A stretch of 64,000 bases of DNA from positions 1 to 64,000 of the forward strand of contig BTUM01000004.1 in the NCBI GenBank assembly GCA_045863235.1. The letters run 5' to 3'. Under the pieces are notes generated by a model that searched no databases, was not told where the DNA came from, and was given only the letters and a program-made list of their open reading frames with translations. This document shows, piece after piece, positions 1-38,254 of the stretch (position 1 is its first letter; each line of letters starts with the position of its first letter). Source of the stretch: Candidatus Xenobia bacterium. GTDB taxonomy: Bacteria; Vulcanimicrobiota; Xenobia; Xenobiales; QWHO01. The position numbers were made by a program, and so were the translations under genes.

Positions 1-152
1 CAGTACCTTGCCGAACTCAGAATTTTTTTCAAGGTTGGCTTGCCGAAAGCTCACGCCGCAGCGCCCCCTTCAAGACGTGGCATGCAAGCGGAGTATTGGC
101 CCAGATTCGCTCCCAGAAGGCCCACCTTCCCCGACCCGAGAACAGCCAGGAC

Positions 153-3140
153 ATGGATCTGCTGGCCGAGCTGAGGGGGCGCTCCACAGGAGCGGCGGTG
201 CTGGTGCACGGGCCCTTCGGCGCGGGCAAAACCCACCTGATCAGCGTGCTCGAGCCGCCTCTGCTGGTGGGGGCGGCCTCCCCCGACGGGTCGGAGGCCT
301 TCGAGGCGTTCCGGGCCGCCCTGGCCAGCGCCGATGACGAGCTGCGGCGCACGCTTGTGCGCACCGCTGGCGCCGGTGGGCCGTTCTTCCACCCCCTGGC
401 ACCGCAGCTCTTCCCGCCACCCAGGCTGGAGCCGCCCGAGGCCTGGTTGGAAGCCGCCTCCCACTGGTTGTGCCAGGTCTCCCGAGAGCATCCCGGGCTG
501 ATACTGGCCTTAGACGACGCCCAGTGGCTGGACGAGCCATCCCGAATGCTGGTGCAATGCCTGGTGCCGCGCCTGGCCAGCGCTCCCCTGGTCCTGCTGC
601 TGGCCTCCGAAAGCGACGAGCCAGCTCTGACCCAGTTCCAACGCCTGCCTCTCAAGCCCGAGGAGAGCCCACTGCTGGCCCGCGAGCTTCAGCACGAGAA
701 CGAGAGCATGGATCTCGAGTCCCTCGTCACCAGCCGACTGGCCAGGATGCAGGAGCAGACGCTGGAGGCCCTGCGCGACGCGGCCCTGCTGGGCACTTAC
801 TTTCCCCTCGAGAAGGCCCTCGAGCCGGCTTTGCAGGCCCGACTGCTCGAGGAGGTGCGACCCGGCCTGTTTCGTCTTATGCACCCGCGCGTCCGGGATA
901 CGCTGCTGGCCAACCTCGATCCCCAGGACCTGCGCCAGCGGCACCAGCGGTTGGGAGCGCCCGGCCGCGGCACGCTCTTCACCCGCGCTCGCCACGTGCG
1001 GGCCGCCGAGCAGACCGGAACGAACGTGCACCAGACGTGTCTTGCGGCCGGTCTCCAGGCGCTCGAGCAGGGGGCGCCGGAGACCGCCCGCGAGTTCTTG
1101 CTGGCCGCCCGCAAGGCCGCTCCCGAGACAACCGACGCGACTTTGCTCAGAGCCCTGGGCCAATCCTGTGCCGCCACCGGACGTCTGGAGGAAGCGCGTC
1201 AGGCGCTGCGAGCGGCTCTGGAGGCAGAGAGCGACCTGCCCACCCGCACCCGGCTGGCTCTGCGACTGGCCCAGTTGGGGCTGCCCGAAAGCGCCCGGGC
1301 TGAGCTCTTGACCCGTGCCCTGCGTGAGAACGGACTGGAGCCCCCCACAGGCTCCTGGCCCGGCATCTTGCGCTCGGCCCTGCGCTGGCTCGGCCCCCGC
1401 AGGCCAGAAAGCTCCAGCCTTCGGGTCGAGGTCATGGGCCTGGCGGCGCTCTGGGCCGCCAGCGAGGTCACCCCTGGACCGCTGCTCGAAGCGGGACTGG
1501 AGGCCTGGCGCCTCAGCCGCCGGTTGGGTCTCTCGCGCGAGAAAGTCCGCCTCAGCTGCGACCTGATGCTCCTGTCGGGTCTGCTCGGATTCGAGCGCCT
1601 GGCCCGCCATTTCCACGGGGTGGCCAGCCGCGAGGCAAGCCAGCTGGCCGACCCGCCAACCCTGGCTCGCACGCGGGTCATGAGCGCCATCACCTCGCAC
1701 TTTTTGGGCCATCCTCTGGAGGCCGAGCTGGAGCTGAGCAAGCACCTCACCGAGCAGGGCCACTGGCTGAGCACGCGCGACTTCCTGTTCGCCTGCAACG
1801 ACCTCTGCTGGAACCTGATGCTGCGGGGCCAGACCCGGCAGGCGCTGCAGTTCGTCGAGCGGGCCCGCGAGCGAGTGCGCCCCTCCCCCGGCAGCCAGGC
1901 CGACCTGGACACGTTGAGCACCTACGTGGTCTCGCTCTCGAGCACGCTGGGACGGGTGCGGGAGGCTTTGGAGACCCTGACCAGCATCCAGGAGCGTTTC
2001 AAGCACGCCCCTCCCCTGCTGCAGGCCAGCCTCTACGGGCACGCGGTGCGCTACTACCTCGAGCAAGACGAGCTGGGCGCCCCGCTGGAGGAGCTTCTGG
2101 GCCGTTTTGCGGCTTTGCAGCTGCCCCCCGCCTGGGTGCCGGTCCACCGGCGCTACTTCTACATCAGCCAGGCCCAGGCGCGGCTGGCCCAGTGCGAGGC
2201 CATCGAGTCCGGCCCGACTCCCGAGTCGTTGGCGCGCCTGAAGACTGCTCTGGAGGAGCTGCGCCGGGCAGCCCGCCCGCCCATCCTGCGAGCCCACCTG
2301 CTGGTGCTGCAGGCCAGCTGGAGCCGGCTCAACGGCCACCTGGAGAGAGCCTTGCGCCAGGTGGAGAAGGCTGAGCGTCTGGCCGACCGACTCGATGCTC
2401 CCGAGATCAACTTCTGGGCCGCCCGCGAGCGGGCTCTGATCAACCGCCTGCAGAGCAATCATGCTGCCAGCTTGCGCTATGCCGAGCTGGCTCACTGGTT
2501 GGCCGGCCTGCAAGGCTGGACCAACAGGGCCCGCCGAATCCGCCGTGAGTTCTCGCTGGGCGCCCTGGTCGCCCGGGAGACTCAGGCCAGCACCACGGCC
2601 TCGCTGGCCACCGAGCGCAGCCGGGCAGAGCGCCTGCAACAGGCCATGCGCCAGTTCCGCGAGGTGCACCAGATGGCCACCACCGACTCTCTGACCGGCA
2701 TCCCCAACCGACGCTTCTTCTTCGAGCAGGCCGAGGAGGTCTGGGCCGATCCGGCCCGGCCCGTGGCGGCCATCTTGCTGGACGTGGATCACTTCAAGCG
2801 GATCAACGACACTTACGGGCACGCCGAGGGCGACCAGGTGCTCAAGGCGGTGGCCGCGACCTGCGCCGGCTGCCTGCGCCAGGGCGACCTGCTCGGACGC
2901 TACGGAGGGGAAGAATTCGCCATCCTGCTCAGCGACGTGCGCGAAGAGGAGGCCCGGGCCAGCGCCGAACGCGTGCGGGCCGCCCTGGAGGCGGCTGCGG
3001 TGGGTACGTTGCGCGTCACCGCCAGCCTGGGAGTGGCCTGCCGGCGCGACGAGGGGGAGCTCTCCGACCTGCTGCGCCGGGCAGACGAGGCTCTCTACCG
3101 GGCCAAGGCGGCTGGGCGCAACCGGGTCGAGCTGGGCTGA
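153..3140 (+). CDS. Diguanylate cyclase with N-terminal AAA/STAND-like P-loop region and TPR-like helical region
   Basis: Walker A GPFGAGKT, Walker B-like LALDDAQW, long helical middle, C-terminal TDSLTGIPNRR...RQGDLLGRYGGEEF. Start placed at ATG 153 (ORF track opens at TTG 96). Confidence 0.85.
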   Translation: MDLLAELRGRSTGAAVLVHGPFGAGKTHLISVLEPPLLVGAASPDGSEAFEAFRAALASADDELRRTLVRTAGAGGPFFHPLAPQLFPPPRLEPPEAWLEAASHWLCQVSREHPGLILALDDAQWLDEPSRMLVQCLVPRLASAPLVLLLASESDEPALTQFQRLPLKPEESPLLARELQHENESMDLESLVTSRLARMQEQTLEALRDAALLGTYFPLEKALEPALQARLLEEVRPGLFRLMHPRVRDTLLANLDPQDLRQRHQRLGAPGRGTLFTRARHVRAAEQTGTNVHQTCLAAGLQALEQGAPETAREFLLAARKAAPETTDATLLRALGQSCAATGRLEEARQALRAALEAESDLPTRTRLALRLAQLGLPESARAELLTRALRENGLEPPTGSWPGILRSALRWLGPRRPESSSLRVEVMGLAALWAASEVTPGPLLEAGLEAWRLSRRLGLSREKVRLSCDLMLLSGLLGFERLARHFHGVASREASQLADPPTLARTRVMSAITSHFLGHPLEAELELSKHLTEQGHWLSTRDFLFACNDLCWNLMLRGQTRQALQFVERARERVRPSPGSQADLDTLSTYVVSLSSTLGRVREALETLTSIQERFKHAPPLLQASLYGHAVRYYLEQDELGAPLEELLGRFAALQLPPAWVPVHRRYFYISQAQARLAQCEAIESGPTPESLARLKTALEELRRAARPPILRAHLLVLQASWSRLNGHLERALRQVEKAERLADRLDAPEINFWAARERALINRLQSNHAASLRYAELAHWLAGLQGWTNRARRIRREFSLGALVARETQASTTASLATERSRAERLQQAMRQFREVHQMATTDSLTGIPNRRFFFEQAEEVWADPARPVAAILLDVDHFKRINDTYGHAEGDQVLKAVAATCAGCLRQGDLLGRYGGEEFAILLSDVREEEARASAERVRAALEAAAVGTLRVTASLGVACRRDEGELSDLLRRADEALYRAKAAGRNRVELG

Positions 3141-3152
3141 TTCATCGTCCCT

Positions 3153-3521
3153 TTAGAACGGGGCCCGGGCCACGAAGTACTTGGTCAGTTTCCTGGTGAC
3201 CTCCCAGATCGTGGTGCAGCCCTGCGGAAAGTGGGCCGAGTCGCCCGCCACCAGGGTTCGGGTGGGGCCGCCAGGGCGGCAGTCGGTGACGGTCAGCTCG
3301 CCCTCCACGATGTAGACGAACTCGTCGTAATCGAAGTGGAACTGGTAGCGCCCGACCTCGCAAGACCAGAATCCGGCGCTGGCGCCCTCGTCGGCGCTCT
3401 GGGCAGTGAAGAGGCAGCGGGCCCGGGGGGAGCCCTCCAGCACCTCCTCGGCCGGCAACTCGATGGAAGGCAACGGGCCTTTCGGCAGCTTGCCGAAGCT
3501 GACGCGGGCGGCGCGGCTCAT
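3153..3521 (-). CDS. DUF861/EutQ-like cupin
   Basis: GFWSCEVG...YDEFVYIVEG...AGDSAHFPQG...WEV signature; start ATG overlaps the stop of the upstream ACAD-like gene (ATGA). Confidence 0.85.
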   Translation of the reverse strand: MSRAARVSFGKLPKGPLPSIELPAEEVLEGSPRARCLFTAQSADEGASAGFWSCEVGRYQFHFDYDEFVYIVEGELTVTDCRPGGPTRTLVAGDSAHFPQGCTTIWEVTRKLTKYFVARAPF

Positions 3522-4750
3522 CCCAACGCCCAGGCGAACATGCCCGTGTAGGGCTCGCTCGAGAGCATGTCGGCACCGAACGAGCGCTCGATCTTGGCCG
3601 TGATGGTGGGGTGCATCGGCCCGAAGTTGATCTGCTCGCTCAGGGCCGCGATGGGATGGTTGGGACTCATCGAGCGGGTGCCGATCAGGTTGCGCGCCCC
3701 GGTCACGATGTGACAGGCGGCGCGAGTGCCGCTGTACTTGATGAGCGAGCCGCAATCCATCAGGTCGTTGGCCACCTTGTCGATCTCCTCGGGAGGGCCC
3801 TGCGAGCGTACCAGCCGGCAGTAGCGGTCGCAGCAGAGCCCGAAGCTGCGGGCCAGGGCCAGCTGCGAGCGAAGCTCCAGCGAGAGCCGGCCCGAGTCGA
3901 CCATGAACCCGTCCACCTCGGCCAGCGGCTCGTCGTCGTCGGTATGCACCGAGTTCGCGAACTTGCGCACCTCCTCCAGGGCCCGGCAGGCCCCTCCCAG
4001 GTACGCGGCCGTCACCAGCGCCTCGAACCAGGCGGTGGCGTAGAAGGAAACGTGATCGGTCAGATCGTCGGAAATGGAGAGCACGTTGCGACTTTTGAGG
4101 CGTAGATTGTTGAACTGGACCGGACGCGTGTCGGTCAGGGCCATGGCCCCCGGAAAGAGCGAGGGCCCCAGCTCGATGGCCGGCTGGTTCTTCAGGTTGA
4201 CGTAGAACATCCCCATCTCCTCGCCCACGAAACCGCTGAACAGAAGGATGTCAGCCTCCGAGGCGATGGACTGAAAACCCTTGCGCCCCGAGCACAGAAA
4301 GCCTCCGTCGCTCTGGGGGATGGCCACCACGTTGCGAAAAGCCTCGTCCTTATGCTTGATGTTCTCGCCAAAGCTGGAGATGGCCATCAGCGAGCGATAG
4401 CGGCGGATGGTATCCACCAGCATCTGGCGCCGTCGCTCGAACTCCGGCACCGAGGGGACAGGCAAGGTTGCCAGGGCAGCCAGGTTGTACTGGTGCATGG
4501 TCAGCCCCACCGCCAGGGGCACCGAGGCCCGGGCCATCAGGTAGAAAGCCTCGTAGGAGCGCACAAAGAGCTCGCCGGCGTCCTCTTGCAGATAGCAGGG
4601 CAGATACGGGATGGAGCTGGCACGCACGGCATCGAAGAAGGTGCGCGACTTCTTGTCGGGGGCAGCAACCTCCACCTTCTCGGCGATCTCGCGCGCCTGG
4701 GCCCGAATGGACTCGCGGTCGATTGCGGGCGGGGCCAGGGTCTTACTCAT
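3518..4750 (-). CDS. Acyl-CoA dehydrogenase-fold flavoprotein, VlmH-like amine N-hydroxylase candidate
   Basis: LAVGLTMH, GFLCSGRKGFQS, AWFEALVTAAYLGGA and C-terminal GPMHP; start MSKTL at 4750 overlaps the upstream stop. Confidence 0.75.
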   Translation of the reverse strand: MSKTLAPPAIDRESIRAQAREIAEKVEVAAPDKKSRTFFDAVRASSIPYLPCYLQEDAGELFVRSYEAFYLMARASVPLAVGLTMHQYNLAALATLPVPSVPEFERRRQMLVDTIRRYRSLMAISSFGENIKHKDEAFRNVVAIPQSDGGFLCSGRKGFQSIASEADILLFSGFVGEEMGMFYVNLKNQPAIELGPSLFPGAMALTDTRPVQFNNLRLKSRNVLSISDDLTDHVSFYATAWFEALVTAAYLGGACRALEEVRKFANSVHTDDDEPLAEVDGFMVDSGRLSLELRSQLALARSFGLCCDRYCRLVRSQGPPEEIDKVANDLMDCGSLIKYSGTRAACHIVTGARNLIGTRSMSPNHPIAALSEQINFGPMHPTITAKIERSFGADMLSSEPYTGMFAWALG

Positions 4751-5648
4751 CGACCGCCGTCTCGGGCTCAGCCTCGGACCCGGATTCATCCTCGCCGTCC
4801 CCGGGCGATACGGCCGGAAGCGCCTGGCGCAGGCCGGAGGCCCCTGCCAGCACCTGGGCCCAGCCGTGATGAAGCTCGCGGGTGGAGCGGTTCTCCTCCA
4901 CGGCGTGCATGCGATTGACGCCCTCCAGGGCGCTCTCCACCACCCGCAGCATGTGCGGGAAGCTGGGATCCTCCGGATGCTCGTCCACCGACTGCTGGAG
5001 CAACGCCTGGGCCTCGAGCAGGGTGAACTCGAGCGGCTGCAAGGCCTGCATCAGCTCCGCCAGCCCCGCTTCTCCCGCCAGGACGCGGGTGTAGGCCTCG
5101 TAGACGGCCATGAACTCGTCGTTGACCTGCACCTGCTCGAACTCGATCTCGTTGGGCTCCGGGTCAGGGATGAGCCGATCGACCTCGCAGTTGGGGCAGG
5201 TCGACTCAGGGCCACTGGAGCCGCATCCGGGACAGATGGGGGTGGATGAAGCGGCCAACTGAGCCAGCTCATCGCAAGACCGCAGAAAACGGCTCGAGCA
5301 ACCTTCCAGCTCCTGCAGAGCGGCAGCGGCGTCACCGTGCCCCTCCAGGGCGTCGTGCATGGTCGCCAGGCTCTGCTCGAGGTTGGCACAGGCAGCCAGG
5401 TTCGATTCGATGAGCGCAAAGAGCGGTCCGTCCAGCCCTCCGGGCCGGTGGTCGAGATGGCCGCGACGCTCTTGCTCGCTGGCCTGAACCCGCTCCCGCA
5501 TGCGTTGCAGGTGGCCGAGCAACTCGGGGTCAGGCTTCTCGAGGCCCTCGCGGAGAAGCTCGAGCAGGCCTTCAAGGCGGTTGGGGTCGGGGCCCTCGGG
5601 GGCTCCGCCGAAAGTGCTGATGAGGTTGTTCAGGTAGCCAGATGCCAT
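4743..5648 (-). CDS. Hypothetical helical protein with central zinc ribbon
   Basis: 301 aa with CPGC...CPNC between two helical halves; overlaps the next gene. Confidence 0.7.
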   Translation of the reverse strand: MASGYLNNLISTFGGAPEGPDPNRLEGLLELLREGLEKPDPELLGHLQRMRERVQASEQERRGHLDHRPGGLDGPLFALIESNLAACANLEQSLATMHDALEGHGDAAAALQELEGCSSRFLRSCDELAQLAASSTPICPGCGSSGPESTCPNCEVDRLIPDPEPNEIEFEQVQVNDEFMAVYEAYTRVLAGEAGLAELMQALQPLEFTLLEAQALLQQSVDEHPEDPSFPHMLRVVESALEGVNRMHAVEENRSTRELHHGWAQVLAGASGLRQALPAVSPGDGEDESGSEAEPETAVDE

Positions 5649-5738
5649 TGGTTTGGCCTTCGCTCGTCAGGCAAAAAGTCCCTGGCCCAGCGCTTGCCGA
5701 GGCTCGGGTTCTTGCCCGTCGCGCATCGCGCGCCATGC

Positions 5739-5767
5739 AAAAAGGGCCCGGATTGCCCGGAGCCCTT
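5739..5767 (-). terminator. Intrinsic terminator
   Basis: Minus strand AAGGGCTCCGG-GCAAT-CCGGGCCCTTTTT just after the stop at 5790. Confidence 0.7.
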
Positions 5768-5789
5768 CGAAGTCAGACCGGGCCGTGAC

Positions 5790-6302
5790 TTAGAAGCCGC
5801 TGCGTCCGAACTGGTTGAGGAAACCGCCCATTCCCGGGTTGGCGCCAGCGGCGGCGTTGTTCTGGGAATTGGCGAGCATCAGTCCGACCATCAAGCCGAG
5901 CAGCATCTGCTGCTGATCCATCCCGCCGAGTTGACCCGCTCCGGCGCCAGCCATCTGGCCCATCGGGTTGCAGCCCTGAGCGTTCCCAGCCCCGGCCATG
6001 GCCATGGCAATCGCCAGGCTGGCATTGTTCTGAAGCGGGTTGGACTGGTTGTTCTGGTTGTTCTTGCCGTTCTTACCGTTCTTGCCGTTCTTGCCATGCT
6101 TGCCGGCTTTGCCATTCTTGCCGTGCTTGCCAGCCTTGCCAGCCTTTCCACCGGCCGCGGCTCCGGCCTCAGCCTGAGCGCCCGAGGACGAGGAGATCGA
6201 GATAGCCAGAGCCATCGAGAAGGCACCCGAAGTGGCCTGGCCGCCACCCGGAGCGCAAAGGGCGGGGTTGTGAAGTCCGGCACCAGCAAGGGTATTGCAC
6301 AT
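5790..6302 (-). CDS. Gly/Ala/Asn/Met-rich low-complexity protein with GK[N/H/A] tripeptide repeats
   Basis: 170 aa ORF with GGAGG RBS, its own terminator and 9-bp tandem repeats at about 6045-6150. Confidence 0.75.
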   Translation of the reverse strand: MCNTLAGAGLHNPALCAPGGGQATSGAFSMALAISISSSSGAQAEAGAAAGGKAGKAGKHGKNGKAGKHGKNGKNGKNGKNNQNNQSNPLQNNASLAIAMAMAGAGNAQGCNPMGQMAGAGAGQLGGMDQQQMLLGLMVGLMLANSQNNAAAGANPGMGGFLNQFGRSGF

Positions 6303-6355
6303 GGTCGTTGTTTCCTCCAGAAGCAGTTTTTATTACTTGAGAGCTTACCAGGGAA

Positions 6356-6385
6356 AAATCGGCAAAACCGGGTCGACAAGTTAAA
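6356..6385 (-). promoter_or_regulatory. Sigma28-like promoter candidate
   Basis: Minus strand TAAC-N16-GCCGATTT; closely similar to the element at 15186-15213. Confidence 0.45.
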
Positions 6386-6551
6386 TCGGTGTAAACTATG
6401 TTGCAGCCAGGTAAAAGATTTCCGAGCCCGCCACTCGGGCGCTGACTGAGGAAAAGGGCGCCGTTGCGACAAACAGAACCTCGGCCCTGCTGTTAACATT
6501 CTCGCTCGGCCCCGGAAGGGCCTGCAGGCGGCCCAGCACGAAACTCAGCTC

Positions 6552-8468
6552 ATGCTGATCCGCAAGTTCGACCGTACCCAGCTCGACTCCGAGCCCCACA
6601 ACGTGCTCTTCAAGGACCTCTACCCCTGGGACGCAATCGGGGAAACCCCGTTCGGCGCCAGCCTGGCCCTGGTCGAGGTGGGCGGCGAGACCATGCTCCA
6701 CAGCCACCATCCGGCGGAAACGTTCTTTATCTGCCAGGGACGGGGCACCATGACGGTCAACGGCGAAACGACCCCGGTCTCCACGGGAGACGTGATCTAC
6801 CTTCCGCCCGGCAGCCAGCACACTCTCAAGAACACCTCCGAGGGCGAATCGCTCATGTTCTTGTCGGTTTTCTGGGACGCCGAGCAGGATGAGGAAGCGG
6901 AGCCCGAGCAGGCGCAGGAGCAGCCCAGGCTGTTCTTCCCCAGCCCCCCTACGCCCAACGGGCCGCTCCACCTCGGCCACCTCAGCGGGCCCTACCTGGC
7001 CGCCGAGGTGCTGCGCCGCTATGACCGCATGCGGGGACTTGCCTCCCGGTATTTGTGCCTGGCCGACGACCATCAGAGCTACGTGGTGCTGCGCTCGGAG
7101 CTCGAAGAGAGCACCCCCGCCGAGACCGCCATCAGGTATGCCGACCAGGCCGTTACCCTGCTCGAGGCCTTCGACGCCGCCCCCGACCTGTGGGTCTTCT
7201 CCAGTCGCGATGAGCGCTACCAGGAGGCGGTGCGTCAGGCGCTCGACCAGCTCAAGCTCGAGGAACGAGAAGAACCGGCCCTCTACTGCCCGAGCTGCGA
7301 GCACTACCTGGTGGACGGCCGAGCGGCCGGAGACTGCCCCCACTGTGGCGAGAGCTGCCGGGGATTCTTGTGCGAGAGTTGCTGCTTGCCCAACCGAACC
7401 ATCGATCTGCTCGAGCCGACTTGCATCGACTGCAAGGCCGCGGCCGCGCTCAAGCCTCTCAAGCAGCTCTTCTTCTCGCTCGAGCCCTGGCGCGAGCGGC
7501 TGCTGGCCTACCACGGCAGCCTGCGCCTGAGCCCCCGCCTCTTGAGCCTGGTAGCCCGCATCGCGCAGCTCAGTCCGCTGGAGCTGACCGCCTCCCACCC
7601 GGGCAGGTGGGGCATCCCCTCCCCGCTGGAAGGCCAGGTCATCTCGCCCTGGCTGGAAGCCGCTCTGGCTCTCCCCTACCTGCGGGCCAGGGCCGGCCTG
7701 GAGGGACCGATGGTGGCCTCGTTCGGGGCTGACAACGCCTTCCTCTACCTCTTCCAGGACCCGGCCGTGGCCCTGGCTCTGGGCCAGCAGCCTGCCGCCC
7801 AGCTCGTGTCCAACGAGCACCTGATGCTCGATGAGCGAAAGATGTCTACCAGCGCCGCCCACGCCCTGAACGCGGCCGCCGTGCTGGAGAAGGTGCCCAG
7901 CGACCTGGTGCGCCTCTTCCTCGCCACCGTACGCCCCGAGCAGGCCGATTCGAGCTGCTCGCTGGAAGCCATGGAGCACTTCCTCCAACAGAGCGTCGTC
8001 CGGCCCTGGCAAGATCTGCTCGAGCGCATCGGGCGCCAGGTCACCGCCGAGGCCGGCTCCAAGGCCCCTGCCGTGGGGGTCTGGAGCCCCGAGCAGTATG
8101 AGTTTCTCGAACGTCTCAACGAGCTGCTGACGCGGGCCGAAAGCGGCTACACCACGGGTTCTCTGCGCGAGGTGGCCCGAGCCCTGCACGAGCTGATCGA
8201 GCGAGTGGCGGCCTTCGAGGCGGCTCAGAGTTATCTGGCCCGGGTCCCGGGCCTGGAGTCCCAGCGAGCCACCGCGCTGGCCCTGATGCTGGCCGCCCTG
8301 CGGCTGCTGGCTACCATCGCCCAACCGCTGATGCCGAGGTTCTCGGCCCTGCTCAACAAGCACCTGGGCTTCCTTAAGCCCGAGCCCTGGCCCGAGGAGG
8401 TGCTCTTCCTCAACCCTGGCCAGCGCATTCTGGCGGCAGCGGGACTGTCGGCCCGGCGCTACTTTTGA
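6552..8468 (+). CDS. Cupin/methionyl-tRNA synthetase-like fusion (Spb40/PyrN/Tri28-type hydrazine synthetase candidate)
   Basis: N-terminal cupin (HSHHPAE...GDVIYLPPGSQH), then PPTPNGPLHLGH, ADDHQSYV, four CxxC zinc-knuckle pairs, KMSTS and a helical anticodon-like domain. Confidence 0.85.
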   Translation: MLIRKFDRTQLDSEPHNVLFKDLYPWDAIGETPFGASLALVEVGGETMLHSHHPAETFFICQGRGTMTVNGETTPVSTGDVIYLPPGSQHTLKNTSEGESLMFLSVFWDAEQDEEAEPEQAQEQPRLFFPSPPTPNGPLHLGHLSGPYLAAEVLRRYDRMRGLASRYLCLADDHQSYVVLRSELEESTPAETAIRYADQAVTLLEAFDAAPDLWVFSSRDERYQEAVRQALDQLKLEEREEPALYCPSCEHYLVDGRAAGDCPHCGESCRGFLCESCCLPNRTIDLLEPTCIDCKAAAALKPLKQLFFSLEPWRERLLAYHGSLRLSPRLLSLVARIAQLSPLELTASHPGRWGIPSPLEGQVISPWLEAALALPYLRARAGLEGPMVASFGADNAFLYLFQDPAVALALGQQPAAQLVSNEHLMLDERKMSTSAAHALNAAAVLEKVPSDLVRLFLATVRPEQADSSCSLEAMEHFLQQSVVRPWQDLLERIGRQVTAEAGSKAPAVGVWSPEQYEFLERLNELLTRAESGYTTGSLREVARALHELIERVAAFEAAQSYLARVPGLESQRATALALMLAALRLLATIAQPLMPRFSALLNKHLGFLKPEPWPEEVLFLNPGQRILAAAGLSARRYF

Positions 8469-9562
8469 TCGCCGTCATCGGGGGCGGGGTGATGGGCGCC
8501 AGCATCGCCTACCACCTGGCCCTCAAGGGCGCCCGCCAGGTGGTGTTGCTGGAGCGGGGGACCCTCTGCTGCGGCGAGACCGCCAAGTCGGGCGGCTTCA
8601 TCCAGACCCACTGGACCAGCCTGGCCGAGACCCGCCTGATCGACTTTTCTCGCACCATCTTCCAGCAGTGGGGAGAGCGTTGCGGCTGGGTCAACTCGGG
8701 CTACCTGCACGTGACCGGCCCCGAGAAGCTCGATTCGGTCAGAGCGGTGCACGACATGTTGCTCTCTGACGGCAAGGAGTCGCACTGGCTGGATCAGCGA
8801 GGCATCAAGACGCTGCAGCCGCTGATGCGGGTGGACGACCTGGTGGGAGCGGCCTACGAGCCCCACAGCGGTTGGGCCGACCCGGTGGCCACCACCCGCC
8901 TGCTGGCGACCCTGGCCCGGGAGCAGGGAGCGGAACTGCGCGAGGGGGTCACGGTGCTGCAGATCGTCCACCGCCACGGAAAGATCATGGGCGTGGAGAC
9001 CGATCAGGGGTTTTTGGAGGCTGAGAAAGTCGTCCTGGCAGCCGGACCCTGGACCCCTGGCCTGCATCCCGACCCGCGGGTGAGGCTGCCCGTCCTGGCC
9101 CGGCGCGGCCAGGTCACTTACATGACCCGCCCGGGAGGGTTGCCCCGGCGCGAGCTGGCCTGCTATGACGAGATCACCGGGCTCTACACCCACTGCGACG
9201 GGGACACCAACCTGGTGGGGATCGACTGGGACTTCGACCCGGTCTACCATCCCGACAGCTACGACCGCGAGCTGGACGCGGACTACCTGGCCGCCGCCCT
9301 GGAAGCCCTGACCCACCGCTTCCCTTCGCTGAGGAGCTCTCAGCTGGTGCGCGGGGTGGTGGGGCTCTACGACTTCACCCCCGATGGCCATCCGGTGGTG
9401 GATGGGCCGCTCGGCATCGAGGGATACTACGTCGCGGCCGGCTTCAGCGGGGCCGGCTTCAAGAGCGCGCCGGCCCTGGGATTGGGAATGGCCGAGCTGG
9501 TGCTGGAAGGGCGAGCCAGCTCGGTCGACCTGGACTTCTTACGGTTGGCTCGATTTGGATGA
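8465..9562 (+). CDS. FAD-dependent oxidoreductase, DAO/sarcosine oxidase family
   Basis: VIGGGVMG dinucleotide motif, YDFTPDGHPVV, GFSGAGFK; TTG start overlaps the stop of the cupin-MetRS gene. Confidence 0.9.
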   Translation: MIAVIGGGVMGASIAYHLALKGARQVVLLERGTLCCGETAKSGGFIQTHWTSLAETRLIDFSRTIFQQWGERCGWVNSGYLHVTGPEKLDSVRAVHDMLLSDGKESHWLDQRGIKTLQPLMRVDDLVGAAYEPHSGWADPVATTRLLATLAREQGAELREGVTVLQIVHRHGKIMGVETDQGFLEAEKVVLAAGPWTPGLHPDPRVRLPVLARRGQVTYMTRPGGLPRRELACYDEITGLYTHCDGDTNLVGIDWDFDPVYHPDSYDRELDADYLAAALEALTHRFPSLRSSQLVRGVVGLYDFTPDGHPVVDGPLGIEGYYVAAGFSGAGFKSAPALGLGMAELVLEGRASSVDLDFLRLARFG

Positions 9563-10003
9563 AGGCCAGAGGAAGGTGATTTCCTCCACGGTCAGACTCT
9601 GCCGGATTGCAGGCGGACAGGTGGCAGCGACCCGAGTGACCCGGAGCCAGAGGCCGCCGGGGGCTCCTTCATAGATCCACTGCTCGGTTCCCGAGTCCTG
9701 GTCCAGGTAAGAGCCGTTCTTGCGCCAGCCGGAAGCCAGAAGGCGAGAATGGGCCTCTGGCAGCTTCATGCCCTGGCGCACGAGGAGACGTTCTCCGAAC
9801 GTCACTTCTTCGCAACCCTCGAATCTTCGTCCTTGAAGAAAGTACGAGGCCAGCTCCTGCTTGCTCTCCTCCCGAGGCACGCCATCCAGACGCAGAACCT
9901 GGGGGACAACCAGGGCGGGCGGAGCGCCGCTCTGCATGCCCAGCAGCCCGCAAGATCCGAGCAGGATCGCCAGGGCCAGCCCATTGGGGCTACATCTCGG
10001 CAT
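9539..10003 (-). CDS. Hypothetical exported protein
   Basis: Hydrophobic N-terminus; start overlaps the upstream gene end. Confidence 0.5.
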   Translation of the reverse strand: MPRCSPNGLALAILLGSCGLLGMQSGAPPALVVPQVLRLDGVPREESKQELASYFLQGRRFEGCEEVTFGERLLVRQGMKLPEAHSRLLASGWRKNGSYLDQDSGTEQWIYEGAPGGLWLRVTRVAATCPPAIRQSLTVEEITFLWPSSKSSQP

Positions 10004-10586
10004 ACATCTTGCGGAACCAGGCCTTCTCGACGAAGCTGACGGTCCAGCCCATCACGCCACCCCAGAAGCCGGAGAAGAGGACGCCCAGGAAGCTGCCGTT
10101 CCCGCTGATCAGGGCCAGAACCCCCCAGGCCAGGCCGACGTAGCTGCCCAACCGCATCGAGTCATACTGGTAGCAGAGCTCGTTCAAAGCTCCGGCGACC
10201 GCGCCCACCACCAGGCCCAGGATGACCTGCTGGGTGAATCCGATGATGAACATCAAACCGCCCCCGATGGCCATACCGGACCATTCGCCCACGATGCTTC
10301 CGAAGAGCCCGCCCCAGAAGGCGTAGTAAAGACCCCAGAAGATGCCCAGGAAAGCTCCCCCGGCGGCTCCGGCGCGCAATCCGTGGACCACGGTCGACTT
10401 GCGCTTGTCGTCTAGCAGCATGCGCTTCTCGGAGGCGCTCACGACCGGTTGGCCCACCTGGGTCTCATCCAGCGCTCCGCTGGGCGGACCCTCCTGACCT
10501 GGAGTGAGCTCCCCCTCGCAGCTGTAGCATTTGGTGTCCGTATCGCGGTTCTGAGAGCCGCAACCCGAGCAGCGAACAAAACCCAT
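9990..10586 (-). CDS. Zinc-ribbon membrane protein
   Basis: N-terminal CSGC...CYSC followed by several Gly-rich hydrophobic helices; start MGFVRC. Confidence 0.7.
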   Translation of the reverse strand: MGFVRCSGCGSQNRDTDTKCYSCEGELTPGQEGPPSGALDETQVGQPVVSASEKRMLLDDKRKSTVVHGLRAGAAGGAFLGIFWGLYYAFWGGLFGSIVGEWSGMAIGGGLMFIIGFTQQVILGLVVGAVAGALNELCYQYDSMRLGSYVGLAWGVLALISGNGSFLGVLFSGFWGGVMGWTVSFVEKAWFRKMYAEM

Positions 10587-10590
10587 GGTC

Positions 10591-11439
10591 TTATCCTTCC
10601 CCCTTCCTGGTGAGTCGCTTCCAGTCGGCCGAGCTGATCGGCCGCCCGCAGGCGCCAAAAACGTCGTGGATCACCCGGGCGCGAGCGAGTCCGGCTGGGT
10701 GGTCGCCATCGTGGTCAGCGTTCAGGACCATCTCCAGGATGGGCAGCGGATCGTAGCCGAGACGAGCGACCATCTCAGAGGCCCGCCGGTCGGCCTCGAA
10801 CTCGACCGTGTGGCTGTAGCTGCGCTCCATCGTCTCCCACTGACGGCCGGTCACGTCGTCCTGCACCATCTCGCCCAGGGCCATGACTCCGAGCAGTCCT
10901 GCCGAATCGCGGCGCTCCACGTGAGCAAGCTCGTGGGCCAGGATGTAGGCGAGCTTGCTCTCGTCGTGGGCGTGGCGCAAAAGCTTCTGGCCCACGAACA
11001 CGGTTTGACCCAGGGCCGAGGCCTCCGAGGGCCGTCCCCAGGCGACCAGCTCGGCCCGGGCCGTGCTCTGGGTCAAGACGCGCCCGAACACGCGCTTGAG
11101 CGCTGGCAAGGCAGCGCGCAGCGAAGGGTCCGGGCGGCCTGAGCTGCCACGAACCTTGACCTCAGCCTCGGCAACCCCGCTCTCCCCCAGGCTTCGTCCC
11201 ACTTCGGCCGCCACCGCCAGCGCCACCGGGGCCCCTCCGGCCACGGCCGGCACAACGCTTCCCAGCACGTGAAAAGCCTGGCGAGCCAGGATCTGGGGGT
11301 CGAAGCGGGGCGGCTTGGCCTGGGATGGAGGCGCCACATGATCGACCGGGTCAGCGCTCGCGGAGGGCGCCACGGGAGGGGTCTCCAGGCGACGCCGGGT
11401 GAGGTCGACATAGGCGGTTGCGAAACAAACCGGGTCCAT
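10591..11439 (-). CDS. M48-family zinc metallopeptidase
   Basis: LAYILAHELAH, YSHTVEFEAD and DHP motifs. Confidence 0.8.
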   Translation of the reverse strand: MDPVCFATAYVDLTRRRLETPPVAPSASADPVDHVAPPSQAKPPRFDPQILARQAFHVLGSVVPAVAGGAPVALAVAAEVGRSLGESGVAEAEVKVRGSSGRPDPSLRAALPALKRVFGRVLTQSTARAELVAWGRPSEASALGQTVFVGQKLLRHAHDESKLAYILAHELAHVERRDSAGLLGVMALGEMVQDDVTGRQWETMERSYSHTVEFEADRRASEMVARLGYDPLPILEMVLNADHDGDHPAGLARARVIHDVFGACGRPISSADWKRLTRKGEG

Positions 11440-13082: not shown

Positions 13083-15152
13083 CTACCCCCCGGCGGCGTC
13101 CTGGGGGTGTCGACGGATGACCTCGTCCAGGTCCTCTTTGCTGAAGCGGTTCCCCGGGTTATTGAAGGGCCAGATTCCTCCCTGATACGTGATCTCGTCC
13201 ACGGCCTGGAACATGGCCGGGTTGCCCACCAGGAACTGAGCCGCGGCCTTCAAATCGGGAGGAGCACCCGGGCTGTTGGCAATGGCCTGCAGGTCGCCCA
13301 TTCCGATGATGCCGTCGCGCCCGCCCACACCGGAGGCGGTATCGACCAGGTCGAAGTAGCGCTTGAGGATGACCGCGGCCTGGCCCAGCGTCATGGTCTG
13401 AGGGGCCGTCGTCTGGTTGTCGAACTGCGAGAAGTTCTGCACCGCTTCGTGCAGGTCGTTGCGACCGATGATGCCGTCCACGTCGCCTCGCCCGTCGGCC
13501 ACGTCGATAGCGTTGAAGAGAGCGGGGTTGGCCAGTAAGAATTCGCAGGCCTCGCGCAGCTCAGGGGGCGCATTGGGAGCGCGCCCGCCCACGATGGCCT
13601 CGAGATCGCTCTTGCCGATGCGACCATCGGCCCCACCCTGTCCAGCGGCCGTATCCATGATGTCGAAGTTGGCCTGCAGGACGGCGGCGGCGCGAGCCAC
13701 CGTCATAGGAGGACGCTGGGGCTCGGGTTGAGGGTCAGGGGTCGGCTCCGGCACGGGCTCGGGTCGAGTGGCGTCGCCCGAGTTGTTTTGAATGGTGGCG
13801 TCCAGATCACGCATCCCGATGATGCCATCGCGATCGCCTACTCCGGCGGCTGTATCCACCGCGTCGAAGATGGCCGGGTTGTCGAGCAGGAACTGCACGG
13901 CCGCTTTCAGATCAGGGGGAGCGCCCGGAGCAGCGGCCACGGCCTCGAGATCGGTTTTCCCGATGCGACCATCCAGGCCGCCCTGGCCTCCAGCCGCATC
14001 GAGCACCCCGAAGTAACGCTTCAAGATGACGGCCGCCCGGCCTGCGGTCATCTGATCGGGAACCTGATTGTTGCTGTCGAGCTGGGCGTAGTTCTGGATG
14101 GCGGCCGTCAGGTCGTTGCGACCGATGCGCCCGTCCACGTCGCCGCTGCCGGCGGCCACATCCAGAGCATTGAAAAGAGCTCCATTGTCGAGCAAGAAGC
14201 GGCATGCCTGCTGCAACTCGGCCGAGGCGTTGGGGGCGCGCCCGCCCACGATGGCTTCCAGGTCGGGCTTGCCGATGATTCCGTCGGCCCCTCCCAGCCC
14301 GGCGGCCGTGTCCACCAGGTCGAAATTGGCCTGCAGGATGGAAGCTGCGCGAGCCAGGGTCATGGGGCGCTCGGGCTGAGGCTCGGGACCAGGATCGGGA
14401 ACCGGGTCCGGCTCGGGGGCGGGCTCAGGCTCAGGACACGGCTCAGGCTCAGGCTCAGGGCAGGGCTCTGGCTCAGGGCAGGGCTCAGGCTCGGGAGTCG
14501 GGGTTGGGGTTGGGGTTGGGGTTGGGGTTGGAGTCGGAGTCGGAGTAGGGGTGGGAGTTGGAGTCGGGGTGGGAGTTGGAGTTGGAGTTGGAGTTGGAGT
14601 CGGCGTGGGATGCGGATGAGGATGCGGGCAGGGCGGTTGAGGCTGGTGGCCCTGCTGCTGTTGGAGCATCTGAAGCAAAGCCATCAGATTGGCTGGACCC
14701 TGCTGCTGCTGGCCCAGGAGCATCAAGAGCATCATCATGAACTGTTGCTGCTGTTGCTGCATCATCATGAACATCATCATCATGGTGGGGTCCATGCATC
14801 CCCCGCCGGGATAGCCCATCATGCCGGGCATCCCCATTCCCGAGCCCATGCCGGGAAAGCCGAACATCTGCGCCATCAGATTGGTGCCAGGCGCGCCACC
14901 ACCCATGTTCAGGTGGGGCAGCGCAGGCAGGGCTGGGAAGGGACAGCATTGGCGCACTCCCTGGATGTCGGCGCCGCACTGGCTGTAATAGGCTGTGTGA
15001 GCCGCCACCTGGTGAGCCGACATCGACTCCACCGGCACCATTCCGGTCGCCAGGGCCTGCTGCACCGCAGCCATGCGCTGGCTCTGAGCCTCGCGCATCT
15101 GGGGAGAGATCACGACCAGCTGGGGGCCGAAACCGGAAATCGAGTCGCTCAC
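13083..15152 (-). CDS. Met/Gln-rich, Pro-linker protein with four HrpF/NolX-like (EF-hand-like DG.IG..DL) repeats
   Basis: GTG start with GAAGGAG RBS; poly-M/Q region, (PT)n and (PE)n linker, repeats containing PPDLKAAxQFLxxNPAxFxAVD. Confidence 0.8.
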   Translation of the reverse strand: MSDSISGFGPQLVVISPQMREAQSQRMAAVQQALATGMVPVESMSAHQVAAHTAYYSQCGADIQGVRQCCPFPALPALPHLNMGGGAPGTNLMAQMFGFPGMGSGMGMPGMMGYPGGGCMDPTMMMMFMMMQQQQQQFMMMLLMLLGQQQQGPANLMALLQMLQQQQGHQPQPPCPHPHPHPTPTPTPTPTPTPTPTPTPTPTPTPTPTPTPTPTPTPTPEPEPCPEPEPCPEPEPEPCPEPEPAPEPDPVPDPGPEPQPERPMTLARAASILQANFDLVDTAAGLGGADGIIGKPDLEAIVGGRAPNASAELQQACRFLLDNGALFNALDVAAGSGDVDGRIGRNDLTAAIQNYAQLDSNNQVPDQMTAGRAAVILKRYFGVLDAAGGQGGLDGRIGKTDLEAVAAAPGAPPDLKAAVQFLLDNPAIFDAVDTAAGVGDRDGIIGMRDLDATIQNNSGDATRPEPVPEPTPDPQPEPQRPPMTVARAAAVLQANFDIMDTAAGQGGADGRIGKSDLEAIVGGRAPNAPPELREACEFLLANPALFNAIDVADGRGDVDGIIGRNDLHEAVQNFSQFDNQTTAPQTMTLGQAAVILKRYFDLVDTASGVGGRDGIIGMGDLQAIANSPGAPPDLKAAAQFLVGNPAMFQAVDEITYQGGIWPFNNPGNRFSKEDLDEVIRRHPQDAAGG
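14400..14625 (-). repeat. Coding hexanucleotide repeats (Pro-Thr, Pro-Glu)
   Basis: GG[G/A]GT[T/C] and GGCTC[A/G] arrays in frame with the 13083-15152 CDS. Confidence 0.9.
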
Positions 15153-37605: not shown

Positions 37606-37693
37606 ATGACCCGAGCGAATGACACAGATCATCTCGGTCCGAGGGAACATGCCCTAACCTGAGAGTACATCTTACCTGAATAGGGAGGCTCGC

Positions 37694-38254
37694 ATGCCGA
37701 TTCCCCTGGAAATCACCTTCCACGGTGTGGAAAAAGTGCCCGCTCTGGAAGAGCTCATTCGCGAGAAAGCCGAGCGCCTCGAGCACATCAACAAGCGACT
37801 GATGCGCTGTCGGGTCGCCATCGAGAAACCCCACCGCCACAAGCGCCACGGCAGCGGCTGGCGGGTCCGGATCGATCTCACCCTGCCCCCCCGGCAGGAA
37901 CTGGTGATCAAAGAAGAGCCCGGCCTGGGAGCCCCTCCCCAGGAGGACCTCTACCAGGTGGTCACGGAGGCCTTCCACACGGCCGAGCGCAAGCTACGCA
38001 AGATGACCGACAAGATTCGCGGCGAGACCAAACGCCATCCCGCAGCCGAGCCCAACGGAGTGATCAAGCGGGTCTTCGTCGACCACGGCTTTCTGCAAGG
38101 CGAGGGTGGTTATGACGTCTACTTCCACCGAAACAGCCTGCTGGGGATCCCCTTCGAGGAACTGACCGTCGGCACCGCGGTGCACTTCACCGAAGAGGAG
38201 GGCGAGGACGGCCCCCAGGCCTCCACCGTCCACGTGCTGGCACGAGCACGCTGA
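37694..38254 (+). CDS. HPF/RaiA ribosome-associated domain fused to a cold-shock domain
   Basis: PLEITFH...ALEELIREKAERL, then HGFL...DVYFHRNSL...GPQA. Confidence 0.88.
   Translation: MPIPLEITFHGVEKVPALEELIREKAERLEHINKRLMRCRVAIEKPHRHKRHGSGWRVRIDLTLPPRQELVIKEEPGLGAPPQEDLYQVVTEAFHTAERKLRKMTDKIRGETKRHPAAEPNGVIKRVFVDHGFLQGEGGYDVYFHRNSLLGIPFEELTVGTAVHFTEEEGEDGPQASTVHVLARAR

Follow-up and report, generated by a model that had tools for sequence, protein, structure and literature searches.

Gene content of the locus

The 64,000-nucleotide stretch of DNA analysed here (the window: positions 1 to 64,000 of contig BTUM01000004.1, from a Candidatus Xenobia bacterium) carries, between positions 3153 and 9562, a set of genes that includes a putative hydrazine synthetase (HS), in which a zinc-cupin domain is fused to a domain resembling methionyl-tRNA synthetase (MetRS). 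Since the GC content of the window is 62-70%, open reading frames (ORFs) were judged by GC content at the third codon position (GC3). On this measure the region holds six genes, two on the plus strand and four on the minus strand, the two sets being divergent. The plus-strand HS gene (6552..8468, 638 amino acids) is followed by that of a 365-residue FAD oxidoreductase of the DAO family (8465..9562; PF01266, 216.8 bits) similar to oxidases of sarcosine, N-methyltryptophan and glycine. The second gene starts at a TTG that shares bases with the HS stop codon (TTGA), and in relatives the DAO match starts at the end of the HS match, bearing out the translational coupling proposed in an earlier interpretation of this DNA from its letters and ORFs (the sequence-only reading).

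The minus-strand genes are transcribed in the order repeat protein, p301, ACAD-like protein, Cupin_3 protein. The first encodes a 170-residue Gly-Lys-repeat protein (5790..6302; GC3 0.76, supported by an alignment of homologues), with GGAGG lying 9 nucleotides 5' of its ATG. About 30 nucleotides past its stop codon, a consensus scan and the sequence itself reveal a terminator-like hairpin with a T-run (5747..5761, minus strand), for which the evidence is weak, as the scan found three hairpins against 1.5 expected in shuffled sequence. Next comes an acidic protein of 301 amino acids that belongs to no known family, here called p301 (4743..5648; GC3 0.83). The following gene encodes a flavoprotein of the acyl-CoA dehydrogenase (ACAD) fold related to DszC/TdsC; its ORF as opened is 3518-4789(-), but homologues of about 400-410 residues make M14, at 4750, the likely start, giving a protein of 410 amino acids (3518..4750). 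A stand-alone Cupin_3 protein of 122 amino acids (3153..3521; PF05899, E 2.5e-17) completes the set, its ATG overlapping the stop codon of the ACAD-like gene. The divergent intergenic region between the two operons, delimited by reading the sequence, is 6303..6551; it contains a sigma-70-like match on the plus strand at 6373-6402, a single consensus match and nothing more.

The sequence-only reading had described a minimal, stand-alone pathway of four genes. Its divergent ACAD-fold protein and second cupin are both present, but p301 and the Gly-Lys-repeat protein, which lie between the ACAD-like gene and HS, had been missed, and with six genes the description as minimal does not hold. The second cupin is likewise real, but the 200-residue ORF assigned to it (3153-3755) is too long, coding-type GC3 (0.91) being found only in its last 122 amino acids. 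Two overlapping ORFs, 5337-6449(+) and 5891-6499(-), were dismissed as non-coding (GC3 0.67 and 0.59, respectively), and the genes 3' of the DAO gene (9539-11439: a 154-residue ORF, a Zn-ribbon membrane protein and an M48 peptidase) were placed outside the set on account of their genus-only conservation. As that reading had noted, there is no non-ribosomal peptide synthetase (NRPS), polyketide synthase (PKS) or acyl carrier protein (ACP) among the GC3-supported window ORFs scanned.

The cupin-MetRS fusion is a member of the hydrazine synthetase family

The protein encoded at 6552-8468 contains a Cupin_2 domain at residues 40-107 (E 4.8e-16) and a tRNA-synt_1g domain at residues 135-492 (E 1.2e-42). 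All motifs previously named for it (HxHxxxE, HLGH, DDHQSYV and KMSTS) are present: H50-S-H52-H-P-A-E56, with H90 in GSQHTL, in the cupin domain, then HLGH at 140-143, DDHQSYV from 172 and KMSTS at 430-434. Its best solved relative is PyrN-C, the C-terminal domain of PyrN (9vq4/9l8v; 5.1e-59, 203 bits), from structures reported in a preprint (10.1101/2025.08.22.671884), while the best MetRS reaches only 2.5e-27 and 99 bits. With PyrN, the HS of pyrazomycin biosynthesis (9L8V, 9VQ4, 9VQJ, 9VR2), the window protein aligns at HLGH, at KFSTG/KMSTS, at the D-N pair and at the zinc-knuckle cysteines.

Phylogeny places the protein in the same family. The tree comprised 50 rows (the window, 13 related loci, 26 of 120 listed database matches chosen to span the identity range, seven plasmid-borne HS and three housekeeping MetRS) and was built by a 'quick' method, with SH-aLRT support and several long branches flagged. 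The 47 HS rows and the three MetRS rows are split at 100% support. The window protein falls in a clade of 21 rows (also 100%), with the Streptomyces, Sinorhizobium and Bacillus enzymes outside it. The clade has at least 90 metagenomic protein clusters at 45% identity or more; its named members are mostly Eremiobacterota/Vulcanimicrobiota, with some Myxococcota. The nearest named records are labelled Vulcanimicrobiota/Eremiobacteraeota, in agreement with the non-actinobacterial lineage suspected before. Two third-party metagenome-assembled genome (MAG) records (L010 and L016; 86% and 54% HS identity) are labelled 'uncultured Burkholderiales', while the same contigs class in the window's own genus and order; we regard the label as doubtful.

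A separate, full metG gene is present on contig C5 of the same genome and scores 496.9 bits on PF09334, against 142.6 bits for the 6552-8468 gene. As the protein neither clusters with MetRS nor is the only MetRS-like protein in its genome, both lines support HS membership, and we conclude that it almost certainly belongs to the HS family.

H50, H52, E56 and H90 correspond to the four residues mutated in PyrN, among which the counterpart of E56 is described as essential (PMC8664883); E56 and H90 are kept in all aligned clade members and H52 in most. At the eight amino-acid pocket positions of Matsuda, as quoted in PMC12376268, the window enzyme has S131, P132, D172, Q175, W367, A370, N395 and Y399, or SPDQWANY. 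Other codes given there are SADQWYGH for threonine and SFVQALNR for PyrN. The nearest type is the glycine code TPDQWMNH, carried by three Streptomyces/Sinorhizobium rows of our HS alignment, with which SPDQWANY shares five of eight residues; from this likeness we predict a small amino acid as substrate. The two arginines reported to hold glutamate in PyrN, R390 and R425 (10.1101/2025.08.22.671884), are replaced by L372 and Y399, which argues that the window enzyme is not a glutamate enzyme. Conservation extends to D394 and N395, whose PyrN equivalents hold free N6-hydroxylysine by its alpha-amino and carboxyl groups.

The six genes are linked and co-inherited

We compared 15 distinct related loci (six further records, L010-L013, L015 and L016, duplicate L050, L047, L039, L046, L040 and L044, respectively). 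In seven (L038-L044), the Cupin_3, ACAD-like, p301 and repeat-protein genes are divergent from HS-DAO exactly as in the window, the repeat protein being recognised by ORF inspection in all seven; L047 has the same genes with Cupin_3 placed after DAO. All parts are thus present in 8 of the 15 loci. Two more (L045 and L046) show only HS-DAO-Cupin_3 and are split forms, with p301 and the ACAD-like gene on another contig. In one of these genomes (G005), the repeat protein, p301 and ACAD-like genes sit together on the other contig (L064). In the other (G027), three repeat-protein genes stand beside HS (two in L046, the third match found by genome search), and a separate contig (L065) begins with p301 and the ACAD-like gene. 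The repeat-protein gene therefore remains linked either to HS or to p301/ACAD-like when the module splits. Among the remaining loci, L014 and L017 have Cupin_3 divergent from HS-DAO, L048 and L049 have HS followed by a distant ACAD-like gene, and L050 is cut at the contig start. Overall, DAO adjoins HS in 13 of 15 loci and Cupin_3 is present in 12, while p301 is next to the gene for the repeat protein, the ACAD-like gene or both. When the flanks of the related loci were scanned with Pfam, neither another shared gene nor any NRPS, PKS or PF13434 match came to light.

Across 61 related genomes, HS of the window's clade and the ACAD-like gene occur in 16 each; the two are found together in 15, and 44 genomes have neither. 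The two single-gene genomes are G003, with HS only (64% complete, the locus at a contig edge), and G021, with the ACAD-like gene only (75% complete). Within one genus (g2), four genomes carry both genes and three others of 94-96% completeness (G009, G011 and G033) carry neither. The repeat protein is found in 13 of the 61 genomes, all among the 15 with HS and the ACAD-like gene, and p301 matches at E <=1e-60 occur in 14, with weaker paralogues across both families. As these genomes are kin, the counts are descriptive and do not amount to a statistical test. In a large protein collection, 20 of the 63 ACAD-like matches share the size of their longest contig with an HS match, and 9 of 22 repeat-protein matches do so with an HS or ACAD-like match; both are indirect signs of location on the same contig.

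Taken with the gene arrangement, the interval 3153-9562 is very probably a six-gene functional module. Parts of it are duplicated in some genomes: G019 has two tandem p301/ACAD-like pairs (L040, G019:C149, 2115-7259), G017 a second repeat-protein/p301 pair (L044, G017:C80, 1635-3061), and G007 (C14:11142-12283) and G031 (C18:71455-72596) each an extra repeat-protein-like gene beside a p301 copy with one in-frame stop.

An ACAD-fold protein related to DszC, and no N-hydroxylase of the SidA/IucD type

In Pfam, the ACAD-like protein has a single match to the ACAD families, to Acyl-CoA_dh_1 at 18.3 bits (under the cut-off of 22.4), and its sole NCBIfam match is DszC. A profile of 34 family members compared with the PDB retrieved DszC (4.9e-16) and two other entries of the ACAD-type-2/monooxygenase kind (1.3e-11), followed by cyclohexanecarboxyl-CoA dehydrogenase (6.9e-8), 2z1q (1.1e-5; the top annotated acyl-CoA dehydrogenase of a known type), KijD3 (1.7e-5) and medium-chain acyl-CoA dehydrogenase (7e-5). 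A Foldseek search with the AlphaFold2 model (mean pLDDT 91.6) placed DszC/TdsC first (1.6e-16, TM 0.75), with ranks 1-15 taken by DszC/TdsC and a flavin monooxygenase and true ACADs close behind at 4e-15. Among the group-D ACAD-fold flavin monooxygenases (DszC/TdsC, KijD3, DnmZ, ORF36, MsuC), DszC/TdsC are nearest by both profile and fold, although the window protein is only about 20% identical to this group. A nearly invariant histidine (H380 of the 410-residue form) aligns with His391 of DszC, which we take to be a catalytic residue. The family is small, with 63 matches in 5.8 billion protein clusters.

We also compared the window protein with an AzsF-type protein encoded in an azaserine-like cluster on a Streptomyces plasmid. 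The latter is a canonical ACAD, scoring 128.3, 76.2 and 36.4 bits on the Pfam ACAD domains, and its match to the window protein is remote (BLASTP E 0.018; hhalign probability 94.9%, an alignment at the level of the fold). The window ACAD-like protein is therefore not of the AzsF/Tri22 type. A second ACAD-like paralogue, 41-43% identical, occurs in G013 (L066, G013:C6, 1-8162), where its neighbours belong to the lysine pathway (genes for aspartate-semialdehyde dehydrogenase and aspartokinase to one side, for dihydrodipicolinate synthase to the other) and aroA and aroE come next; this setting may be a coincidence or a hint of a link to lysine.

To our knowledge, every characterised cupin-MetRS HS is fed by a class B (SidA/IucD-type) N-hydroxylase. 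In the seven annotated plasmid HS loci that we opened, from 107 records with a match (two from Bacillus, two from Streptomyces and one each from Sinorhizobium, Pantoea and Rhizobium), a SidA/IucD/PvdA monooxygenase lies within 7 kb in all seven and an FAD oxidoreductase in six. No lysine/ornithine N-monooxygenase had been seen in the window before, and the absence extends further: no co-localised SidA/IucD/PvdA-type N-hydroxylase occurs in the window or in any of the 15 related loci. The PF13434 profile retrieved from the window's own genome (97.6% complete) nothing better than an ArsO-like/Pyr_redox_3 flavoprotein on contig C81, at 19.8 bits, and from five other module-bearing genomes at most 35.6 bits; four HS-linked N-hydroxylases from the plasmid loci score 291-352 bits. 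With these four hydroxylases as queries, tblastn gave no match at E<=1e-3, whether in the genome, in the window or in 19 related loci.

The view that the N-hydroxylase is missing is thus right as to the SidA/IucD type, but the role itself is probably filled, by the DszC-like ACAD-fold protein co-inherited with HS. From relationship and modelled fold, we lean towards this protein being the N-hydroxylase that would supply the hydroxylamine. ACAD-type enzymes already serve this purpose elsewhere in N-N bond pathways: VlmH/VlmR is an N-hydroxylase of this type, and AlaD/AlnG has been proposed as one, according to PMC11705231.

The DAO-family oxidase, the Cupin_3 protein and p301

The PDB matches of the DAO protein include a Pyrococcus horikoshii chain named 'sarcosine oxidase' (1y56_B, 2.8e-33) and dimethylglycine dehydrogenase (2e-28), and in NCBIfam it matches N-methyl-L-tryptophan oxidase at 117.7 bits, under the cut-off. 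Its best named relatives are thus N-methyltryptophan, sarcosine and glycine oxidases; enzymes of the sarcosine, dimethylglycine, N-methyltryptophan and glycine oxidase type oxidise the C-N bond of N-substituted amino acids. The sequence-only reading had set the protein beside Spb39/Tri27. It shares a Pfam family with the HS-linked oxidases, four of which match PF01266 at 63-171 bits, but is at most their putative orthologue: identity to the Bacillus enzyme is 24.5% (1.5e-22), the Sinorhizobium match is partial (1e-6) and the oxidase of Streptomyces SAT1 gave no BLAST match.

The Cupin_3 protein matches 3bcw (3.8e-8) and TM1112 in the PDB. It is without histidine metal ligands, the residues invariant among 13 homologues including no histidine cluster.

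For p301, we found no Pfam or NCBIfam match. Its AlphaFold2 model (mean pLDDT 80.8) consists of two helical bundles around a central zinc ribbon (CxxC...CxxC), and the invariant residues follow the pattern P-C-x2-C...C-x2-C...R-L. A protein atlas returned only unnamed Vulcanimicrobiota clusters, at 0.86, with structural TM below 0.5. Comparison of the model with 48,161 chains found only generic four-helix bundles over residues 1-138 (top Z 13.0, a value common for helical bundles), the C-terminal half being barely tested. Two p301 paralogues in the same genome lie in unrelated neighbourhoods. Complex prediction with the ACAD-like protein, p301 and the repeat protein, the last being the scored partner, gave a median of 0.68 against 0.76 when the ACAD-like chain was replaced, which speaks neither for nor against binding.

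The Gly-Lys-repeat protein

An alignment of 12 homologues shows the repeat protein to consist of an N-terminal segment of the IAIAI type, 9-14 Gly-Lys(-X) repeats, a C-terminal helix and a terminus of the form ...F-G-R-x-G-F. Purifying selection acts on the gene: L041 and L042 differ by 50 synonymous and 3 non-synonymous codon changes, with 52 differences at third positions against two each at positions 1 and 2. Homologues number 22 in the 5.8 billion protein clusters, none with a functional name. A collagen-like protein was considered and rejected, PF01391 scoring 18.5 bits against a cut-off of 27.2 and distant homologues having Gly-Lys dipeptides rather than triplets.

Contigs assembled from RNA libraries of three studies end at 6313-6315; a contig from a DNA run spans 3324 to 7067. 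In two of the RNA runs, a contig of about 540 nucleotides covers only the repeat-protein gene (5779-6313 and 5772-6315), at a k-mer depth of 26 against 2-12 for other contigs of the locus. The coincident ends are a weak hint, contig depth being no measure of expression and the parts of the locus without RNA contigs no evidence of silence. A contig from one RNA-library run (X3) lacks 9 nucleotides at 6045, an in-frame loss of one repeat unit, which suggests that the length of the repeat tract varies between strains.

A proposed hydrazine-forming pathway and its alternatives

From family membership, fold, motifs, linkage and co-inheritance we infer every chemical step of the following scheme, as well as the N-hydroxylase assignment and the substrates. 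A hydrazine-forming module made up of two sub-modules is, in our judgement and by a modest balance, the best explanation of the six genes as a whole. The first sub-module, comprising the repeat protein, p301 and the DszC-like ACAD-fold enzyme, would N-hydroxylate a primary amine with reduced flavin provided by a reductase encoded elsewhere; the ACAD-fold enzyme would thereby stand in for the SidA/IucD-type N-hydroxylase of all characterised systems. The second consists of HS, the DAO-type flavoprotein and Cupin_3. Here the MetRS-like HS domain would adenylate a small amino acid and then O-acylate the hydroxylamine with it, and the zinc-cupin domain (H50, H52, E56, H90) would rearrange the ester to form the N-N bond. 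The sarcosine-oxidase-like flavoprotein would then oxidise a single C-N bond adjoining the hydrazine, and a hydrazine would be freed by hydrolysis, perhaps catalysed by Cupin_3. The established order of steps, as described in PMC8664883 and PMC11705231, runs from hydroxylamine to O-aminoacyl ester, cupin-mediated N-N rearrangement and cleavage by a flavoprotein. The proposed module follows this order and would depart from it in the enzyme supplying the hydroxylamine, and possibly in the carrier of the amine.

The amine may be a free amine or amino acid or, quite possibly, the epsilon-amino groups of the Gly-Lys tract, with p301 as an adaptor. That the lysines of the repeat protein are the amine donor is a tentative suggestion. 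Along such a protein-templated route, which we likewise put forward as a speculative one, the DszC-like enzyme, guided by p301, would N-hydroxylate the 9-14 lysines of the repeat protein and HS would build N-N bonds on them. The sarcosine-oxidase-like flavoprotein, with Cupin_3, would then release either hydrazinoacetate, leaving allysine, or glyoxylate, leaving N6-aminolysine.

Several points weigh against parts of this scheme. We know of no HS that acts on a protein, and the conserved D394 and N395 fit a free amino-acid substrate equally well. The pocket SPDQWANY is identical to no characterised code, and its sixth position varies (A/V/L/M/I) within the clade. The role of N-hydroxylase is assigned by elimination and by fold; there is no flavin reductase in the module, the genome not having been searched for one; and other flavin monooxygenases in the genome, such as the ArsO-like protein on C81, would be able to supply a hydroxylamine. 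The DAO protein has no close relationship to the HS-linked oxidases. Two related loci, L014 and L017, are without the ACAD-like, p301 and repeat-protein genes on the stretch covered (7.6 kb upstream in L014, only 3.8 kb in L017), and two more, L048 and L049, have only HS and the distant ACAD-like gene (31-34% identity), with neither DAO nor Cupin_3, the repeat protein not being found in their genomes. Finally, the sole characterised ACAD homologue in HS clusters, Tri22/AzsF, is described as a dehydrogenase acting after N-N bond formation (10.1101/2021.05.12.443849; PMC10445470).

The alternative that survives best confines the chemistry to small molecules. Here the ACAD-like enzyme would hydroxylate a free amine, and the co-regulated pair of repeat protein and p301 would serve as accessories, not as substrates, for instance by acting as a scaffold or regulator or by trapping reactive aldehydes. 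According to PMC11705231, the HS characterised so far all take free N-hydroxy amino acids as substrates. The conservation of D394 and N395 fits such substrates, as do the four loci with an HS of the same clade and no visible repeat protein (L014, L017, L048 and L049). The repeat protein is nevertheless confined to genomes with the module (13 of 13, and none of the 44 lacking it) and is held by purifying selection. Its lysine run is the clearest feature common to its homologues, lysine N6 being the nitrogen donor in a known pathway, and it adjoins HS in G027 even though p301 and the ACAD-like gene are elsewhere. We hold this explanation to be possible, without thinking it probable.

A second alternative moves the ACAD-fold enzyme downstream: HS and DAO would work like their Spb/Tri counterparts, an enzyme encoded elsewhere providing the free N-hydroxy amino acid, and the ACAD-fold protein would act after N-N bond formation, as Tri22 and AzsF do, by converting the hydrazine oxidatively into a hydrazone or a diazo-type product. 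Tri22 is reported to turn carrier-bound hydrazinoacetate into a hydrazone by oxidation (10.1101/2021.05.12.443849) and shares 65.9% identity with AzsF (PMC10445470); the fold-level alignment with the AzsF-type protein and the other flavin monooxygenases of the genome are in keeping with such an arrangement. The co-inheritance of HS and the ACAD-like gene is compatible with either role. We nonetheless consider a Tri22-like role unlikely, for the window protein is far from the AzsF-type protein in BLASTP and Pfam score (18.3 versus 128 bits) and has oxygenases as its nearest relatives, the module is without an ACP, an AMP-ligase or a succinyltransferase, each of them required by Tri22, and no SidA-type enzyme was found in the genome.

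A fusion that makes no N-N bond is very improbable. The adenylating domain would then carry out some other ligation, for example aminoacylation of the repeat-protein lysines, with the flavoproteins as unrelated redox tailoring enzymes. The triacsin preprint reports product formation in vitro by the MetRS-like domain on its own, which means that the two domains do not divide the work rigidly (10.1101/2021.05.12.443849). Against this, the zinc ligands and catalytic glutamate of the N-N-forming cupin are kept throughout the clade, and the protein nests in the HS family beside members whose neighbours are a canonical N-hydroxylase and oxidase. That the protein is a housekeeping or back-up methionyl-tRNA synthetase with a cupin domain is refuted, since the NCBIfam metG models match at 160-167 bits, far under their cut-offs of 336-587 bits, a full metG lies on C5, PyrN-C is closer than any MetRS, and the tree separates the two families at full support.

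Other features of the window and related loci

The rest of the window consists of ordinary chromosomal genes, such as polA and genes for an S1 protein, efflux and two-component systems. At 3-3140(+) there is a large signalling protein (an AAA_16 ATPase with TPR repeats and a C-terminal GGDEF diguanylate cyclase) whose gene ends 12 nucleotides short of the Cupin_3 stop and is kept there only in the closest relative, L038. A 689-residue ORF at 13083-15152(-) matches T3SS_HrpK1 (E 1.6e-24) and NolX (E 1.8e-13), both type III secretion translocator families; it failed the GC3 filter, so its reading frame and status are uncertain. The segment 36001-38000 is an outlier in composition (GC skew -0.167, AT skew +0.281), unlike the rest of the window, and an ORF for a ribosome-hibernation/cold-shock fusion lies at 37658-38254. 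In L046 (G027:C115), an ORF of a bacterial MAG at 3454-4452(-) matches the eukaryote-type ubiquitin family PF00240 (E 1.1e-31). Six sequencing runs contained at least half of the sampled window words, all of them sludge, bioreactor, wastewater or digester metagenomes; one is possibly the window's own source, and we draw no claim about habitat.

Comparison with known systems and implications

The closest comparison is with the Spb38-40/Tri26-28 cassette of lysine N6-hydroxylase, DAO-type oxidase and HS, with which the window module shares the motifs of a didomain HS and a DAO flavoprotein coupled to it. Unlike that cassette, the module is without a SidA/IucD hydroxylase, its oxidase is not a close relative of the HS-linked ones, it has four extra conserved partners (the DszC-like monooxygenase, p301, Cupin_3 and the Gly-Lys-repeat protein), and no ACP, ligase or NRPS lies downstream.

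Valanimycin biosynthesis (VlmH/VlmR, VlmA, VlmO) follows the same logic as proposed here: an ACAD-type enzyme makes the hydroxylamine, and O-aminoacylation and rearrangement to a hydrazine follow, as described in PMC11705231. It differs in having no cupin-MetRS enzyme: VlmA makes the ester, with seryl-tRNA as the donor, and a membrane protein, VlmO, carries out the rearrangement. In the actinopyridazinone (Apy) pathway, the oxidase can cut on the amino-acid side, leaving the hydrazine on the amine donor (PMC11705231), a result that would, by analogy, be in keeping with an N-substituted glycine as the substrate of a sarcosine-oxidase-like enzyme. That pathway uses a class B N-hydroxylase (Apy11) and free diaminobutyrate and alanine instead.

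The order of the minus-strand genes also recalls, as an analogy only, the logic of ribosomally synthesised and post-translationally modified peptides and of scaffold peptides: the operon opens with a small conserved gene and a hairpin resembling a terminator, next to which a helical, non-catalytic protein is encoded, and the enzymes follow. A known recognition element, a leader/core architecture and a protease were not found.

At least one published mining strategy kept only HS homologues co-localised with a putative N-hydroxylase (10.1101/2025.08.22.671884), and a clade like that of the window can be filtered out by such a restriction. A full-text literature search found no paper describing an HS together with a DszC-like enzyme and a lysine-repeat protein, Matsuda's 2024 clade analysis lying outside its coverage. 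In the clade described here, the synthetase travels with a different class of flavoenzyme and with a lysine-repeat protein seen in no other setting. If N-hydroxylation is indeed the work of the ACAD-fold enzyme, biology would have a wider set of known routes to hydrazines, and a new pair of biocatalysts would be gained. If the lysine-repeat protein should prove to be the substrate, the HS would be the first of its kind to modify a protein, and N-N bond biosynthesis would gain its first ribosomally made scaffold or product.

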